In this document: in pieces, positions 10,148 through 17,492 of the stretch
Numbering within the stretch: the first letter of the stretch is position 1
How the letters are laid out: each line of letters opens with the position of its first letter
Sequence record: PZ386969.1
Strand: one strand, 5' to 3'
Length of the DNA stretch: 64,000 nt
Origin: a phage
Notes under the pieces: model-generated
Database searches by the model: none
Told to the model about the DNA's origin: nothing
The model's input: only the letters and a program-made list of their open reading frames with translations
Made by a program: the position numbers and the translations under genes

Positions 10148-10381
10148 TCACACCTCTTTGTGTTTCTTCATCTTGCGAACAGTGCCCACAAACCCAAGAT
10201 CCTTCCCGCAATGGGTGCAGATAGCATGGCAAGCGTGGTTCTCACGATAGGTGCTGTGTTTGCAGCGCCATTGCTTGAACGCCGAACGGGCAACTAGGAT
10301 CACGGCGATCAAGAAGACGATGCCGGATATCTGAAGTTCAACCAAGAACTTCGCCCACCAGAAACTCATGTACTCACCCAT
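10148..10381 (-). CDS. small membrane protein with C-terminal Cys/His cluster
   Basis: Start placed at ATG (MGEYMSF) after GGAGAAGGGAA, overlapping the ligase stop; TM helix plus HACHAICTHC motif. Confidence 0.3.
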   Translation of the reverse strand: MGEYMSFWWAKFLVELQISGIVFLIAVILVARSAFKQWRCKHSTYRENHACHAICTHCGKDLGFVGTVRKMKKHKEV

Positions 10382-11804
10382 TTCCCTTCTCCAACAGGAA
10401 TGCAATGTTTTCGATGTATGCTTTCTGTATCGCATAGACTTCATCCAGTGTGTTGGCCACTTTCTTGTCAATGCGGACTTCTACAAGGCGAGGTAGGAAC
10501 AAAGACTTCATCGCATCATCTGTCTTATCCTGTACGCCATTGGAGAGCACTGCGGCGATCTTGCCAATGTAGTCGCCCTGGTTCTCCCACATATGGCGTC
10601 TCAGCTCATCTGAGATCCCTGATACGCCAACAACAAGCAGGCTGTCGGAAGTTTTACAAATCAGTGAGCCAAAAGTCTTGGCGTGTTTACCCTTCTTGTC
10701 AGCCTCGTTGAAGCCCACAATTTCAAGGTCACACTCAACCTCCATCTTCAGCTTCAGACCTTCAGAAGAAGTCCCATCTTCCCAAGGCATGTCGGCGGCC
10801 TTACATATCGTGCCTTCTTCTTTGCGAGCCAGCGCGTCTTTGAAGTGGTCGACGGCTTCGGCAAATGAGTGAACAACATGAGTTTCCTGAACCTGAACCA
10901 GACCGTCGTCTTCATCAAACAGTTGCTGGATAATATCGAAGCGGCGCTCATACGGGGTGTCCACGCGCTGGGCGTTGAACCAGTTGTCGTACGGGATAAC
11001 ATCCCACACCCGGTAGATCACCCGATAACGATCTTCTAGGGGTTCTCCTGTCTGAATCACGCTGTTGAGTTTACCGTTACCGACAGCACGAGGCAGGATG
11101 GTATTCGACTTGAGGTCAACAACGAGAAGTTCACCATGGAACACACTCTCACCAATCCCCGCATCGTAGATCAGGTCTTTGAACACCAGTGAAAGGTTAT
11201 CAACCGAACCACCTGCGATAAGGGAACCGGAGCGAGAGCGAATCTCAGGCTCTTTATTGTACCGACATATGATGTTGGCGAACATACCGTCTGACTTCAG
11301 CTGGCTGTAGACGCCGCGCTTGAAGTCCATCTTCTTCAGCAGGTCAATCGTCATGTTGTCATAACGATGATATGGAAGGATGTTGATCAGGCGTCCAGTG
11401 CCTCCGGCGGCGTTGAATGCAGCGTTGATGCCCTTCTCAGCGATACCCGCCTTGATATCACGGTCTAGGATCATCTGAATGAGTTCGTGGTATTGGGGAT
11501 CCATCTTCAGGGCGACAGAGGCCAACAGGGCATCAGCCTTTTGGCCACCGACAAGGCGCTGCGCCATCTGGTCGAGGACGTCATAGACTTCGCTGATGTC
11601 ATCAGTCTTCTCACGGACGAGCATGCGAGGATACGCGCTGAGCTTCAACTCAGTCCGATAGAACGACATCATTGGGTCATAGACATACTGCAGGAAGTCT
11701 GCCAAGTCTGGGTTGTTCTTGAATGCTTCGGTCAGCACGGCTTTCTTCGCATTGCTGCCTTTGGTTTCGCGAAGTCGGTGGACTGTTTCAAGGATAGGGA
11801 TCAT
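10374..11804 (-). CDS. ATP-dependent DNA ligase
   Basis: Adenylation motif I KxDG (LKSDGMF); 476 aa close to T4 gp30; GGAG RBS. Confidence 0.8.
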   Translation of the reverse strand: MIPILETVHRLRETKGSNAKKAVLTEAFKNNPDLADFLQYVYDPMMSFYRTELKLSAYPRMLVREKTDDISEVYDVLDQMAQRLVGGQKADALLASVALKMDPQYHELIQMILDRDIKAGIAEKGINAAFNAAGGTGRLINILPYHRYDNMTIDLLKKMDFKRGVYSQLKSDGMFANIICRYNKEPEIRSRSGSLIAGGSVDNLSLVFKDLIYDAGIGESVFHGELLVVDLKSNTILPRAVGNGKLNSVIQTGEPLEDRYRVIYRVWDVIPYDNWFNAQRVDTPYERRFDIIQQLFDEDDGLVQVQETHVVHSFAEAVDHFKDALARKEEGTICKAADMPWEDGTSSEGLKLKMEVECDLEIVGFNEADKKGKHAKTFGSLICKTSDSLLVVGVSGISDELRRHMWENQGDYIGKIAAVLSNGVQDKTDDAMKSLFLPRLVEVRIDKKVANTLDEVYAIQKAYIENIAFLLEKGNG

Positions 11805-11918
11805 GTGGTGTCTCCAGGGTTATATGTGCTGCTATTATAACCCTGGGGACTTCAATAGATTATTGGCGGGTACGGGATCTTGCTTGGCTGATAATGACCG
11901 CAAATGTTTCTGTATCCA

Positions 11919-12452
11919 TCATGAACCCTCCGCCCAGACAAAGCCGTATTTGTTCAGTAGATCCACGGTTTCACCACGAGCGCGAGCCACGATAGATTCT
12001 ACTGATTCTTCCACCTCGAGTGGTGGGCAACCAGCCTTTTCGTACGTGTTAAGCAAGAGAGCAAGTTCTTTTACAAACTCTTCTTGTTCCTCTCCTCCAA
12101 AGAACCACATCCGCAGATCGTCGCGTTCCCCGTGCTTGTTCAGGGAAGCCATATTCACGTACACGTAATCAGTTTTCTGAACAACGCCGTTTATCTCCGG
12201 CCATCGCAACCCAGCCATCGCATAATTGAAGAATTCCGAAGGGGTGACTTCATCCGACAAATAATACAAACGGAAGTCACCGCTGGGGCCATGTTTGCAA
12301 GTTCTATCCAGCATTATTTTGTGGATGTCAATACGGTCTCGCTTCAAGACTTCCCGTTTCTTCAGTCGACCTCTCAGCCAGGCACTGCCAATACACAAAA
12401 GAACGAAAGCAGTAGCACCAGTGAGTATGTTGAAAGAATCAATAATGTTCAT
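11919..12452 (-). CDS. membrane-anchored protein (hypothetical)
   Basis: ORF 11919..12479; upstream ATG lies inside a perfect hairpin, so start moved to ATG (MNIIDSF) with GGGGA RBS; N-terminal TM helix ILTGATAFVLLCIGSAWL. Confidence 0.4.
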   Translation of the reverse strand: MNIIDSFNILTGATAFVLLCIGSAWLRGRLKKREVLKRDRIDIHKIMLDRTCKHGPSGDFRLYYLSDEVTPSEFFNYAMAGLRWPEINGVVQKTDYVYVNMASLNKHGERDDLRMWFFGGEEQEEFVKELALLLNTYEKAGCPPLEVEESVESIVARARGETVDLLNKYGFVWAEGS

Positions 12453-12493
12453 AAGATCCCCGAAGTGATAGAGGGGCATAAGCCCCTCTGATG

Positions 12494-13102
12494 TTATTTG
12501 CTCAGGCTGGCGAGGTAGTTGTCGGCTTCGATAGACGACGGGCTGTTGGCGGAGTAGCTCGAATCAGCGATTTCGGTTTCGCGCAGGATGGCATCGATAT
12601 CGATGGTGGTCATACCAGCGGCATAATCGATATCTTCAGGGAGCACCAGACCCAGGTCGTTCGTCTCTTTCTGAACACGAACCAGCTCGAGATTGGACTT
12701 GACTTCGTCCAGTTTGTCACCCAGCTGGATGATCGCACCGTTCAGTTTGTCGCTGCTTGCTTCGATGTCCTTCACCTGAGCCAACAGGGCTTCACCGATA
12801 CGGCGGCGATGCAGAATAATCAGGGCGTCGGCGCGGGTTGGTGTGACACCACGAGCGATGGCGTCCTTCAGAACTTCTTCGCGCTTGGCGGCTTCACTTA
12901 GGTTCTGTTCTGCGGTCTTCTTCAGCTTGACGCCGTTGCGGACGTTGGTGACACGGGCTTCCTCCAGGCGACGGATTTCGTCAGACAGCTTGCGAGCAGC
13001 CAGGTTCAGGCGCTTTTCGGTGTCGGTCAGTTTATCCAGACCTGCGGTGACGTTAGCTTCAACAGTGGTGAAGATGCGTTTCAGTAAGTTTTTCAGTGAC
13101 AT
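12494..13102 (-). CDS. PspA/IM30 (phage-shock protein A)-like protein
   Basis: 202 aa all-helical; N-terminal pattern MSLKNLLKRIFTTVEANVTAGLDKLTDTEKRLNLAARKL parallels E. coli PspA N-terminus; GAGGA RBS. Confidence 0.45.
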   Translation of the reverse strand: MSLKNLLKRIFTTVEANVTAGLDKLTDTEKRLNLAARKLSDEIRRLEEARVTNVRNGVKLKKTAEQNLSEAAKREEVLKDAIARGVTPTRADALIILHRRRIGEALLAQVKDIEASSDKLNGAIIQLGDKLDEVKSNLELVRVQKETNDLGLVLPEDIDYAAGMTTIDIDAILRETEIADSSYSANSPSSIEADNYLASLSK

Positions 13103-13119
13103 CAGTGTGTAGTCCTCAG

Positions 13120-13461
13120 TTATTTCTTCGGGGGTTCAATTGAGGTGAAAGAATCCTTCCAACTCTTGAATTTTTCAACCAGGGCTTCTTTACCCAGCTT
13201 GTCATTTGACACGCTGTGAATATAGGCGAATGCTCCATAGCCGGATCCTGGCATAGCCTTGCAGATGCGCAGACTGACCAAAGAATCTCCTACGGAAACA
13301 AGATAGTGGTCACGACGATTGTTCAGGGCATAGTGGTTGTCGTGAAACTTGTCAACAATAACACAGTTCTGAGGTTCGACGTCAATCGGTAGCCCGTTGG
13401 CTTCGGATCCACCGCGCCCAAGCACGCAGCCTGGGAATAATGTTTCTACGAGTGTAGTCAT
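13120..13461 (-). CDS. hypothetical protein
   Basis: 113-aa ORF with AGGAA RBS; a TATAAT -10-like box lies upstream. Confidence 0.4.
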   Translation of the reverse strand: MTTLVETLFPGCVLGRGGSEANGLPIDVEPQNCVIVDKFHDNHYALNNRRDHYLVSVGDSLVSLRICKAMPGSGYGAFAYIHSVSNDKLGKEALVEKFKSWKDSFTSIEPPKK

Positions 13462-13691
13462 GGTCTGTTCCTTCTGTAAGTTCCCATGTATTATATGGGT
13501 GAATAGTTTATTGAATTATTTGTTATGAAACCCAGAGCCTTGTGGACTTCTTCACGATTTTAATTTCGGCCTGAGCCTTTGTGCGATTAATCCGGCGCTC
13601 GCCATTCCATTTCAACATCGATCGCATCTATCAGACAACGGATTTCGGTGCTCAGGGGCTTGCCAACAGCCAGTTGAAATACTTGCGCATG

Positions 13692-13904
13692 TCACTTCCT
13701 CATCAATGAGAGTAGGTTGACCGTAGCCGGACGCGCATCAGGAGCGTAGAAGACGTCCTGAGAGTGCCTCTTACAGCACGGGCAATCCTTCGTGGCGATT
13801 ACACAGGGAGCCTTGTCCACGGCAAATCCAGCGGCTTCGGCTTCCTTCACAGTGGTGAATGGCAGGTAAGCACTTGTGCCCTGCCCTCCGCATGAACATT
13901 CCAT
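13692..13904 (-). CDS. small Cys-rich protein (putative zinc-binding)
   Basis: ORF track start is TTG; ATG one codon in; CSCGG...CPCCKRH cysteine cluster. Confidence 0.35.
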   Translation of the reverse strand: MECSCGGQGTSAYLPFTTVKEAEAAGFAVDKAPCVIATKDCPCCKRHSQDVFYAPDARPATVNLLSLMRK

Positions 13905-14020
13905 CAACGTTTCCTCTTAAAGGGGATGACCAGGGCTATGATGAGAAGCATAGCTGTAATCATCCCACATGCTATCAGACCGAAGGCGAACGACTTCAGA
14001 ACAAACTCAATCAAATTCAT
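13904..14020 (-). CDS. 38-aa hydrophobic peptide (not in ORF track)
   Basis: ATG overlapping the stop of the upstream gene (ATGA), GAGGAAG RBS; translation MNLIEFVLKSFAFGLIACGMITAMLLIIALVIPFKRKR; stop overlaps next start. Confidence 0.3.
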   Translation of the reverse strand: MNLIEFVLKSFAFGLIACGMITAMLLIIALVIPFKRKR

Positions 14021-15222
14021 AACTTCCTCAATTTAGCTCTGGTGACCTGAGTTTGTTTAACGCCGTTGTACTCAGTCAGTTCTTTAACACGACCACGGAT
14101 GATCATATCACCCTGCAAGAACTCTGTATCCATATAAGAGGTCTTCCAGGTAATTGTATTGCCTTCTGCTGTTTTGAAAGTAAACAGGTAGCTATCACCA
14201 TATTCATTGGAGAAGAGGAAGGTGCGCTTGTCGAACCTGACTTGCACTTCCAGCATTTCACCGACTTCACCCACCCATTTGTTCTCCGCCTTGCGGTCAG
14301 TACGAGGACGATGGATGTAATCGTAATACTTCTTGGCACCCCAGCGGACTGTGTTGTTATCCTTGATGAGGTGATAGCCGGGTTCACACATGCGTTTCAG
14401 GCGAACATTGAACTCATTAGATTCGGACAGCGCACTGATGAAAAGCTTCATATGGTACATTTCCGACTCGGCATCTTCACGGTATTCGTGTGCCTTGTTT
14501 ACGAAATACTCTTCATCGGAACCTGCTTTTGGTTTCTGATGAGACCGGACATAGCCCAGTACTTTGTCAAACAGTTCAGACTTGATATCCACGCCTGCTA
14601 GCATCACCTGGAAGCATGCGCGCAGGAAACTGTGGGTGTCGACGAAGCGCTCATTTTGGACGCGATATATACCCTCTGGGTCGTCCTCGTCTGGCATGAA
14701 GAACTCTTGGATTTCCAGATAGTAAGACATAATCGCGTCAAGGGACTTCTGATGAGGCACATAATGATGCATACAGGTGCTACCAATCAGCATCTGGGTA
14801 TGCGTTTCCTCATTTTCAATCACATACGTGTTCTTGCGACGGATGACTAGATTGCAATGCTGACACCAAGAGACGTTCTCTGTCTCGAAGTGACGGATGA
14901 AGTCAGGATTGATGTTGTCGGACAGGCGGTTAAGAATAACCTTTGGATATTCGTGATTGAACTGACCGATGATCTTCCAGCCACCATAAGAGACGGGGCG
15001 GTCAATGCCTTCGCCTTCGAGAGTAACAGGTTTCCACCAGTGAGTAAGGATCTCACCAGTGAAGTCGCGGGTGTGGGTTTTGAAGGGTTCACCATAAGTC
15101 ACAGTCGGAAACGGAACACCCAACCTTTCGGCAGTGCGCTCGAGCTTCTTCAGTCGCTCAACTACCAACCCTTCATTGTCGATCGGAATATTGAATGTTT
15201 TGACGTTCATTTCCAGCCTCAT
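14017..15222 (-). CDS. hypothetical protein with Cys/His cluster
   Basis: ORF track start is TTG; start moved to ATG (MRLEMNV); WCQHCN...CMHH motif; about 402 aa. Confidence 0.45.
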   Translation of the reverse strand: MRLEMNVKTFNIPIDNEGLVVERLKKLERTAERLGVPFPTVTYGEPFKTHTRDFTGEILTHWWKPVTLEGEGIDRPVSYGGWKIIGQFNHEYPKVILNRLSDNINPDFIRHFETENVSWCQHCNLVIRRKNTYVIENEETHTQMLIGSTCMHHYVPHQKSLDAIMSYYLEIQEFFMPDEDDPEGIYRVQNERFVDTHSFLRACFQVMLAGVDIKSELFDKVLGYVRSHQKPKAGSDEEYFVNKAHEYREDAESEMYHMKLFISALSESNEFNVRLKRMCEPGYHLIKDNNTVRWGAKKYYDYIHRPRTDRKAENKWVGEVGEMLEVQVRFDKRTFLFSNEYGDSYLFTFKTAEGNTITWKTSYMDTEFLQGDMIIRGRVKELTEYNGVKQTQVTRAKLRKL

Positions 15223-15253
15223 GATGTAGTTGTAACTCTTCAATACAGATTAA

Positions 15254-16067: not shown

Positions 16068-17492
16068 CTAGAATTTCCAATTATTGACTGTTTGGGCTTT
16101 CTGCTCATCGCTGGCAGCAGCCCCGGACTTGTTGAGGTCATGTTTGATGTGTACGTTTTCGACATATTTGGCCTCAGCCTCAGTCAGATCCTTCTTAACT
16201 TCGTTCCAGTCCAGGTCAAACAGGATCTGTTTGTCTTGGTCCATACCAAACAGGAATGACTTCAGCTTCTGCTTGTTGGCATAACGGTTCTTGAGTATTG
16301 AGGCTCGGGCTTTCTTGACCGCCGCCAGTTCGTCAGGAGCATAGAATGCCATGATGAAGTCGGCCACCTTCGGAATACCGATAGCATCTGCCAGATCACT
16401 GATTCCACCATCAGTGCTATTCTGATTCTCACGATTGAACTGCATACCAGTCCATACAGGGACATCAAACTCAAATCCCAGCGCACGAAACTCACGAGCC
16501 ACAGACGTGTAATAGACGTTCGTGTTCTGCATCAGGTGGGAAGGCAGGCGCGAGGAAGCAGCTTCGCCAAGATAGTCAATAACGATAACATCAGGAGCAC
16601 GACCTGTTGCCTGGATGTACTCAAGGATATCGCGGCGGAATAAACCCGTGTGTCCAGTACCAGAAGGATATTCCTTGATGACGATATCACCCTTGGGCGC
16701 ACCATCTTGGCGACTGCGGAGCTTCTCTATCGTTGCAATATACTCGTGCCTTGTGAGTTTCTCTAAAGACTCAAAGTCGCGACGCATGATACGGGCATCA
16801 AGACGGTGTCGCCAGACGTTCTCGGCCACTTCAAGGGTGAAGACAAAGACGTTCAGCCCCTGCTCCGAGTACCCTGCGGTCAGGTCAATCAGCGTTGTGG
16901 TCTTACCTGCGTTGATCGCACCTGTTACGATGTTCAGTGTCTTCTTACCAACGCCACCACGTGTCGCCTTATTGAAGATCTCAACTGCGAACGGGATCTT
17001 GGCCTCGTTGGAGTTCATGTGGTCATACTGCTCTGCCGCCATCTCCCAATAGATGTGGCCGAGGTATGAATCAAACCGGATAGCCAGGGCTTCCTGCAAC
17101 ATGGTCGGGATGTTGTTCATCTCGTCCTTGCGCTTCTCGTCACCGTAGATGTTGACGGCGGTCTTGATTGCGTTGTGTACGGCTTTTTGCCGCGCCCAAG
17201 CCTCGGTTTCCTTCGCCAGCCACTCTTCATTGAAGGTGTTGTCGTTGATGTTCTCCAGGGCAGTCACTGCCTGGTCAAACACATATTCGTTCAACTTTGT
17301 CCGTTCAAGAATGATAGATAGTGCTTCGACAGACGGGCGGGCATTGTACTCTGAGGTATAACTGTCAATCAGGCCAAAGATGACCTTTTCGCCTTCGTTG
17401 TCAAAATAATCGGCTTTCAGGTACGGCAGGATCTTTCTTTGGTAATCTTCATTGTAAATCAACTGTGAAAGCACGACAGATTCGAGTAACAT
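16068..17492 (-). CDS. DnaB-family replicative DNA helicase (T4 gp41-like)
   Basis: 474 aa; Walker A GAINAGKTT; DnaB-like C-terminal RecA fold; size matches T4 gp41 (475 aa). Confidence 0.85.
   Translation of the reverse strand: MLLESVVLSQLIYNEDYQRKILPYLKADYFDNEGEKVIFGLIDSYTSEYNARPSVEALSIILERTKLNEYVFDQAVTALENINDNTFNEEWLAKETEAWARQKAVHNAIKTAVNIYGDEKRKDEMNNIPTMLQEALAIRFDSYLGHIYWEMAAEQYDHMNSNEAKIPFAVEIFNKATRGGVGKKTLNIVTGAINAGKTTTLIDLTAGYSEQGLNVFVFTLEVAENVWRHRLDARIMRRDFESLEKLTRHEYIATIEKLRSRQDGAPKGDIVIKEYPSGTGHTGLFRRDILEYIQATGRAPDVIVIDYLGEAASSRLPSHLMQNTNVYYTSVAREFRALGFEFDVPVWTGMQFNRENQNSTDGGISDLADAIGIPKVADFIMAFYAPDELAAVKKARASILKNRYANKQKLKSFLFGMDQDKQILFDLDWNEVKKDLTEAEAKYVENVHIKHDLNKSGAAASDEQKAQTVNNWKF

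Follow-up and report, generated by a model that had tools for sequence, protein, structure and literature searches.

A PspA/IM30-like protein of the phage T4 e.6 family and its candidate membrane-anchored partner in an Ackermannviridae genome

Background

PspA, Vipp1 and ESCRT-III form a universal machinery for membrane repair and remodeling. PspA and Vipp1 bind membranes through an N-terminal helix (alpha0), polymerize and counter proton-motive force (PMF) loss. Some members are assisted by small anchored proteins: LiaI is the anchor or regulator for LiaH, and PspB and PspC are those for PspA. Here we describe a protein of 202 amino acids (aa) that resembles PspA and is encoded by an Ackermannviridae myovirus, within a 64,000-nucleotide stretch of phage DNA (sequence record PZ386969.1) that is called the window throughout. 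Its sequence places it, as a compact (~200 aa) and strongly diverged member, in the PspA/IM30/Vipp1 branch of the ESCRT-III superfamily. The protein is also a homolog of the T4 protein e.6 and will be referred to by that name. The gene directly downstream encodes a membrane-anchored protein, here termed the partner (Table 1).

The closest described relative is Gp_125 of Salmonella phage SeF3a, a Kuttervirus. This ortholog has 80.7% identity over the full length and belongs to the same PHROG (phrog_1203). Its place in the genome is the same as well, directly followed downstream by the same membrane-protein gene. Gp_125 was found to be homologous to PspA by HHpred, and a role as an anti-abortive-infection factor that prevents PMF loss was proposed for it independently of the present analysis (Gendre et al. 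2022; PMC9409062). The gene was regarded there as special to SeF3a and 4 of 15 Kutterviruses (PMC9409062), whereas the family described here spans Ackermannviridae genera and Straboviridae. The SeF3a gene carries the GenBank label "shock protein A", and a 92%-identical protein goes by the name "PspA/IM30 family protein" at NCBI. Because the homology to PspA is already present in databases and in one paper, its detection in the window leaves the state of knowledge unchanged, and interest centers on the function of these proteins rather than on their existence. The new elements are modest refinements. They comprise the identity with T4 e.6, for which no paper drawing a link to PspA was found in the searched literature, a two-gene cassette with an anchor predicted to face the cytoplasm, a conserved RNA hairpin and a divergent C terminus.

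The window protein can be compared with several known systems. Like E. coli PspA, cyanobacterial Vipp1/IM30 and B. subtilis LiaH, it has an amphipathic alpha0 followed by a hairpin of ~120 residues, colinear from residue 1. Unlike them, it is ~20 residues shorter, appears to have a family-specific tail in place of alpha4/alpha5 and is encoded by virulent phages. T4 e.6 is a full-length homolog of similar length that shares the family-specific tail and the PHROG, and early/middle expression is known for it. However, its location is the e.1-e.8 block that flanks the endolysin gene, its neighbors are unrelated and it lacks an anchored partner. The partner resembles LiaI and PspB/PspC by role only, as a small anchored protein that is encoded beside a PspA-like gene, is co-inherited with it and has its bulk predicted to be cytoplasmic. 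It is unrelated to PspB, PspC and LiaI in sequence and fold, and T4-like phages with e.6 lack it. Once members of the e.6 family are set aside, the best viral structural match is a PspA/IM30 protein of Acinetobacter phage vB_AbaM_ME3 (A0A172Q0S7, 229 aa), which is likewise a phage-encoded PspA fold. In contrast to e.6, that protein has canonical length and is directly recognized as PspA/IM30; it has only 13% identity in the structural alignment and represents a separate lineage.

Homology to the PspA/IM30 family

The Pfam profile PF04012 (PspA_IM30) matches the window protein with E=4.9e-11 and 43.1 bits. This exceeds the gathering score of 33.9 and places the protein in the PspA/IM30 family. 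The match aligns residues 5-147 with positions 1-144 of the 220-position profile. When members of the e.6 family were compared individually with Pfam, 13 of 44 matched PF04012 (E<=0.01), and every other Pfam family was matched by no more than one member. These scattered matches involve Taxilin, BAR_3, MAP65 and similar families, at E values near 1e-3.

Family profiles give a consistent picture. Two alignments were used: A1 contains 27 Ackermannviridae-type sequences, and A2 adds distant T4-like members for a total of 44. Searching the PDB with the A1 profile returns seven Vipp1/PspA chains on top, with a best E value of 0.0055. With A2, the nine best matches are all Vipp1/PspA, led by Synechocystis Vipp1 (E=5.1e-6) and including E. 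coli PspA (E=5.8e-4). The addition of divergent T4-like members therefore sharpens the match (from 0.0055 to 5e-6) rather than diluting it. The A2 alignment is colinear from residue 1 to ~145 on both sides and includes the pattern at the hairpin tip (A-x-x-x-G ... L-x-R-[KR]). The same colinearity was reproduced when the A2 hidden Markov model was compared with E. coli PspA. An alignment of A1 with a single E. coli PspA sequence by hhalign was too weak to be used, since only alpha0 was aligned (PspA residues 3-35) at a probability of 1.4%. Other comparisons that start from one sequence, namely phmmer against the PDB and the NCBIfam equivalogs, were likewise too weak (scores below).

A closer relation to eukaryotic or archaeal ESCRT-III (Snf7, CdvB) was not detected, as neither the window protein nor other family members yielded a Snf7 match in Pfam. 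Any relation to ESCRT-III would run through the PspA/Vipp1 branch only.

Predicted structure

AlphaFold2 predicts an all-helical protein (predicted local distance difference test (pLDDT) 75.5, predicted template modeling score (pTM) 0.62). Helices at residues 3-83 and 90-150 (pLDDT 79-94) form a long hairpin with arms of 60+60 residues, and short helices follow at 169-177 and 190-201. A Foldseek search of the PDB with this model ranks Vipp1 structures first (7o3w_A, E=5.9e-3, TM score 0.55), and CdvB2 appears only at rank 48 (E=0.23). Among viral models in BFVD, the matches that come right after members of the e.6 family itself are a PspA/IM30 protein of a phage and a Snf7 protein of Megaviridae (E=0.085).

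The N-terminal segment has low pLDDT in the monomer model. Residues 2-19 form an amphipathic helix whose hydrophobic moment is 0.47, compared to 0.49 for alpha0 of E. coli PspA and a 95th percentile of 0.446 for shuffled sequences. The hydrophobic face consists of L3/L6/L7/I10/F11/V14/V18 and is flanked by K4/K8/R9. Conservation of this amphipathic alpha0 across the e.6 family points to membrane binding.

Residues 151-202 carry an LGxxLPEDhD linker, a DxD motif and an invariant terminal YLASL, and these features are conserved within the family, T4 e.6 included. Positions 145-220 of PF04012 are not matched by the window protein. In the region that would correspond to alpha4/alpha5, the model has only the two short helices and a linker of low confidence.

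These results bear on an initial annotation of the window, which was made from the DNA sequence alone. The open reading frames (ORFs) that it named exist as described, all on the minus strand. Its view of the 202-aa protein as all-helical agrees with the AlphaFold2 model, and the resemblance to PspA that it saw at the N terminus is borne out by the significant PF04012 match, by the family profiles against the PDB and by the ESCRT-III-like helical hairpin in the model.

The T4 e.6 family

The initial annotation had also considered a phage-encoded PspA unusual, a view that does not hold. A tblastn search locates the family in at least 234 phage records of Ackermannviridae and Straboviridae, canonical PspA/IM30 proteins occur in other phages, and the link to PspA for the 81%-identical ortholog of SeF3a was published in 2022. 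The carriers include Ackermannviridae that infect Salmonella, Klebsiella, Escherichia, Shigella and Enterobacter, together with phages of Aeromonas, Cronobacter, Citrobacter, Proteus, Serratia and Erwinia that are mostly Straboviridae. Only a subset of Ackermannviridae carry e.6. The family is compact: an exhaustive profile search of 1.84 billion representative proteins recovered only 42 clusters, nearly all of 195-205 aa. Every named member that was found is a phage record, except for one protein filed under Salmonella enterica. The same profile gave 17 matches, at its residues 145-190, to P0064, a giant repeat adhesin of 3868 aa. These fall on the repeat GLGLTAPTDVDTAVGTLTI and were judged to be a chance match amplified by repetition.

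Membership of the window protein is clear from two comparisons. The phrog_1203 profile covers residues 4-201 with E=1.3e-66. T4 e.6 (NP_049742, 197 aa, 'conserved hypothetical protein') aligns over its full length, including the tail, with 23% identity (E=7e-13, residues 5-200). The tail typical of the family, LGxxxxEDV...DVD...YLxSL, is conserved, and phrog_1203 is also assigned to T4 e.6 in the annotation table of the CRISPRi-ART study. The ortholog in Shigella phage Ag3 already carries the annotation "e.6", which was taken from an Aeromonas T4-like phage. Neither T4 e.6 nor phiAS4 e.6 alone gives a PspA match in Pfam; the Ackermannviridae proteins are thus the bridge that reveals the identity of e.6.

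Two misannotations were noted within the family. In RB18 (L002 3106-4091), the 197-aa homolog of e.6 is labeled 'e.7' and a 111-aa gene is labeled 'e.6'. In Klebsiella phage UPM 2146 (MN478483), an 80%-identical ortholog is labeled 'tail completion protein'.

Data on T4 e.6 come from supplementary tables, as the gene was not found in the main text of the literature searched. Time-resolved omics list T4 e.6 as early at the RNA level and middle at the protein level, with the protein detected (PMC9697503, supplementary files 4 and 6). In a genome-wide knock-down with dCas13d, T4 e.6 is listed as 'Not Fit', that is, without measurable fitness cost on the laboratory host (PMC11879866, supplementary file 15). 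Early to middle expression combined with cost-free knock-down is the pattern of an accessory gene that is useful under certain conditions.

A two-gene cassette

The window lies close to known phages: positions 11800-14100 are 96.9% identical to Escherichia phage vB_EcoM-ZQ1 and ~93% identical to Ag3, an Agtrevirus. The minus-strand genes of this region sit in the replication module, with the DNA ligase gene (10374..11804) on one side and a gp41-type helicase gene (16068..17492) on the other. In T4-like phages, e.6 is not found in the replication module.

The e.6 gene of the window is preceded by the ribosome binding site (RBS) GAGGA. The partner starts at the ATG at 12452, as the initial annotation had it. 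This codon is preceded by GGGGA, the earlier in-frame ATG at 12479 falls in the loop of the intergenic hairpin, and the PHROG profile aligns with the longer ORF only from residue 10 onward. The single N-terminal transmembrane segment of the partner has a flanking charge of -1 on its N side and +6 on its C side. By the positive-inside rule, its conserved C-terminal domain is predicted to lie in the cytoplasm, where the e.6 protein would also be.

The distribution of the two genes ties them together. The partner (phrog_11433) occurs in 86 records, which is the same number as for Ackermannviridae-type e.6 (identity >=60%), and both searches return 43 Salmonella phages. In every genome among the matches listed, the partner is immediately downstream of e.6. 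The most direct evidence comes from Escherichia phage YX22, in which positions 11898..13101 of the window (1.2 kb) are replaced by 2 nucleotides (nt) between flanks that are 96-97% identical to the window. The missing stretch comprises exactly the partner gene, the hairpin and e.6. Given this clean indel, e.6 and the partner are gained or lost together as a two-gene cassette.

The members of this cassette evolve at different rates. Between Agtrevirus-like and Kuttervirus phages, e.6 proteins are ~84% identical, whereas partner proteins are only ~33% identical, so the partner evolves much faster. Despite this divergence, one C-terminal motif of the partner, SIVARARGxxVDLLNKYGFxWxEG, has stayed almost invariant (11919..12452 compared with L006:3646-4233). 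Such a pattern would agree with a variable part that faces the host and a constant part that faces e.6. Among the distant carriers of e.6 that were compared, only Erwinia phage Bue1 encodes a protein of similar architecture at the position of the partner (178 aa, N-terminal transmembrane segment), and no detectable similarity between the two was found.

The e.6 stop codon is followed immediately by a GC-rich hairpin whose position is conserved across four Ackermannviridae genera, represented by the window, Ag3, Vi01 and Bue1 (coordinates in relatives L001:5102-5143, L006:3610-3645 and L011:2631-2689). In Bue1 it is followed by a U-tract, and an annotated terminator occupies the corresponding place after e.6 in Proteus phage Pm5461. 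The conserved hairpin or terminator suggests that the partner behind it is expressed at a lower level than e.6. The hairpin may be an attenuator that sets the ratio of e.6 to partner expression.

The initial annotation placed the PspA-like gene within a cluster of small membrane proteins. This holds for the anchored gene downstream, which co-varies with e.6, but not for the other small genes, which do not and thus do not form one unit with it. The 113-aa gene directly upstream occurs in 233 phage records, some of them without e.6, and YX22, despite its lack of e.6, keeps both the Cys-rich gene and the 38-aa gene. The grouping is also looser than described, because the 113-aa ORF and a remnant of ~230 nt (see below), both omitted from the initial annotation, lie between e.6 and the Cys-rich gene. 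Neighbors of e.6 in the window have no detected similarity to T4 e.5, e.7 or e.8 or to the neighbors of phiAS4 e.6. Pfam, NCBIfam and PADLOC searches found neither PspF, PspB and PspC nor LiaI and LiaF among the neighboring genes, and an association of the psp-operon type was therefore not observed.

Possible roles of the e.6 protein

The host Psp response requires new transcription that depends on sigma54 and PspF. T4-type and other large virulent phages shut off host transcription. Since this shut-off blocks induction of the Psp response, a phage would have reason to carry its own copy. We infer that the most likely role of e.6, for which the balance of probability is about even, is to supply a stabilizer of the membrane and the PMF to a host that cannot induce its own response. 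The protein would be made early to middle in infection and would bind the cytoplasmic face of the inner membrane via alpha0, where the anchored partner might recruit or regulate it. It would oligomerize through the hairpin, as PspA and Vipp1 do. The stressed membrane would thereby be sealed or stabilized and the PMF preserved. The benefit would be conditional and could arise, for example, against membrane-depolarizing abortive-infection effectors, damage from superinfection or premature holin triggering. A conditional benefit of this kind fits an accessory gene that has no knock-down phenotype on a laboratory host.

A broader and more tentative version of this proposal extends it to the whole family. 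The e.6 proteins could possibly constitute a self-sufficient, minimal viral repair module of the ESCRT-III-like type, which would have its own anchor in Ackermannviridae. They would then serve large virulent phages, T4 included, as a counter-defense that neutralizes membrane-depolarizing abortive-infection effectors and keeps the cell energized.

Several observations weigh against a PspA-like role in the membrane. Membrane binding, oligomerization and PMF protection are inferred for all members of the e.6 family, and the timing of expression in the window phage is extrapolated from T4. A scan of the region for sigma70 promoters and terminators did no better than shuffled sequences, and a convincing sigma70 promoter was not found. 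Identity to E. coli PspA is only ~20%, and phmmer against the PDB reports the E. coli PspA structure 4whe at E=8. Scores against the NCBIfam equivalogs are far under the cut-offs (13.2 versus 242.95 bits for PspA, TIGR02977; 13.5 versus 380 for LiaH, NF045984), which makes e.6 a remote relative and not an ortholog of host PspA or LiaH. Among 1.84 billion proteins, the search with the family profile recovered no bona fide PspA at E<1e-3. This absence does not count against homology, since profile searches of the PDB and Pfam gave significant matches and the size of the database and the remoteness of the relation explain it. Unrelated long helical hairpins, such as those of ciliary microtubule inner proteins, score close to Vipp1 in Foldseek, so the fold is compatible with ESCRT-III but is not decisive by itself. 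In PspA, Vipp1 and ESCRT-III, alpha4/alpha5 supply contacts between the subunits of polymers. Because this C-terminal third is not recognizably conserved in e.6, polymerization may differ or be absent. Finally, no membrane-anchored gene was found downstream of e.6 in the T4-like carriers examined, and the partner cannot therefore be essential to the core function.

The divergent C terminus is accommodated by a second explanation, which we consider unlikely. Here, e.6 would be an antagonist or decoy of host pathways linked to PspA. It could bind PspF so that the psp regulon stays off, it could cap or poison polymers of host PspA, or it could stand in as the target of a defense for which PspA is a sensor or tether, as when the cyclase of a type II CBASS is conjugated to PspA. 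Only the N-terminal 145 residues of e.6 are PspA-like, and they match the fragment of E. coli PspA that was crystallized as 4whe, which is the part that contacts PspF. The helices that make polymer contacts appear to be replaced, and the partner's rapid evolution (between genera, 33% identity compared to 84% for e.6) is what an arms-race interface might produce. A precedent exists in Bacillus, where PspA is the conjugation partner that keeps a CBASS cyclase inactive (PMC11153139). However, the link between CBASS and PspA is shown only for a Bacillus system. Specific mimicry of the surfaces that bind PspF or PspA is also doubtful at ~20% identity, and repression of PspF would add little once psp induction is already blocked by host transcription shut-off. 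The family-wide amphipathic alpha0 favors membrane binding over pure protein mimicry.

A third, rather improbable explanation, already named beside membrane protection in the initial annotation, is that e.6 and its anchored partner adjust lysis timing or exclude superinfecting phages. The protein would modulate holin triggering or lysis inhibition, or would block entry of secondary phage DNA at the inner membrane. Holin triggering is PMF-sensitive, and a membrane-associated protein that preserves the PMF would delay it. In T4 and Pm5461, e.6 belongs to a block that adjoins the endolysin gene e, and small membrane proteins are encoded close by in both lineages. In Ackermannviridae, however, the gene lies between ligase and helicase genes, away from the lysis genes, and the neighboring small membrane genes are not conserved with e.6. 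Expression in T4 is early/middle rather than late, and Pfam, PHROG and NCBIfam searches showed no similarity to known Imm, Sp, RI or RIII proteins.

It is very unlikely that e.6 is a coiled-coil protein of a generic kind that acts outside the membrane, for example as a replication or recombination scaffold, and that its likeness to PspA reflects only a shared helical-hairpin composition: the location in the replication module, the stray matches at ~1e-3 that such proteins attract and the unrelated hairpins returned by the fold search would all fit, but the PspA/Vipp1 matches are consistent, start at residue 1, stay colinear over 145 residues with the tip pattern included, strengthen when divergent members are added and involve the sole family matched by more than one member, and e.6 of T4-like phages lies outside the replication module.

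Neighboring genes

Coordinates of the cassette and of the ORFs upstream of it are collected in Table 1. The ATG of e.6 and the 113-aa ORF are 17 nt apart, and the 113-aa ORF itself has a TATAAT-like element (CCATATAATAC) just upstream. The Cys-rich ORF encodes 6 Cys residues and probably starts at the ATG at 13904, which gives a protein of 70 aa.

Table 1. Features of the e.6 region in the window
Feature	Coordinates	Strand	Basis or remark
e.6-family PspA/IM30-like protein, 202 aa	12494..13102 (stop codon 12494-12496)	-	PF04012, phrog_1203, T4 e.6 match
Amphipathic N-terminal helix, residues 2-22, counterpart of PspA/Vipp1 alpha0, putatively membrane-binding	13037..13099	-	Hydrophobic moment and alignment
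Long helical hairpin (alpha1, alpha2/3), residues 25-150, tip ~84-89 (ARGVTPTR)	12653..13030	-	AlphaFold2, colinearity with Vipp1/PspA
Family-specific C-terminal region, residues 151-202	12497..12652	-	Family alignment; pLDDT 55-59 for 151-190
GC-rich RNA hairpin between e.6 stop and partner RBS	12469..12490	-	Stem of 8-9 base pairs, -16.7 kcal/mol, no U-tract
Partner, 177 aa, one N-terminal transmembrane segment, conserved C-terminal domain predicted to be cytoplasmic	11919..12452	-	phrog_11433
Two-gene accessory cassette (partner, hairpin and e.6)	11898..13101	.	Indel relative to Escherichia phage YX22
113-aa ORF directly upstream of e.6; context, outside the cassette	13120..13461	-	phrog_5022
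Cys-rich 70/71-aa ORF and 38-aa transmembrane ORF; context, outside the cassette	13692..14020	-	phrog_4789 and phrog_6569

Positions 13462..13691 (~230 nt) contain short ORFs only, and Ag3 and Vi01 have a gene of ~115 aa (orf00051) at this place. The segment looks like a decayed gene or remnant, because the window shows a 160-bp (base pair) deletion relative to Ag3. The 70-aa Cys-rich protein (13692..13904) has a weak match to the extreme N terminus of the DNA ligase profile phrog_114 (E=0.009), and some Kuttervirus records label the region of the nearby 113-aa ORF 'DNA ligase'. The small genes around the Cys-rich ORF may be ligase-associated rather than membrane-related.

Farther upstream, a 408-aa protein (14017..15243; phrog_2319, similar to KVP40.0369) is conserved throughout Ackermannviridae. 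It contains a Cys cluster (CQHCN...C) and a C-terminal domain common to several PHROGs of unknown function. PADLOC gives it a very weak match to PtuB (E=0.014) and reports no defense-system match for the region.

On the other side of the cassette, positions 11805..11918, between the stop of the partner and the start of the ligase gene, hold only an ORF of ~19 codons. The corresponding segment has three small genes with single transmembrane segments in Ag3 (gp041-043) and one in Vi01. The site is a hot spot at which tiny membrane-protein genes are gained and lost.

Implications

The practical value of these comparisons is that they tie an Ackermannviridae protein to e.6 of T4, the best-developed phage genetic system, for which expression and knock-down data already exist. 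They also supply a candidate membrane partner and a natural relative without the cassette, YX22, for comparison. If e.6 does act as a phage-supplied stabilizer of the membrane, its early expression would show that virulent phages actively maintain the integrity of the host membrane. A viral protein that takes over the Psp function of the host would thereby be shown for the first time, with T4 e.6 as a ready genetic model. Such proteins could define a new class of counter-defense against immune effectors that kill by membrane depolarization.

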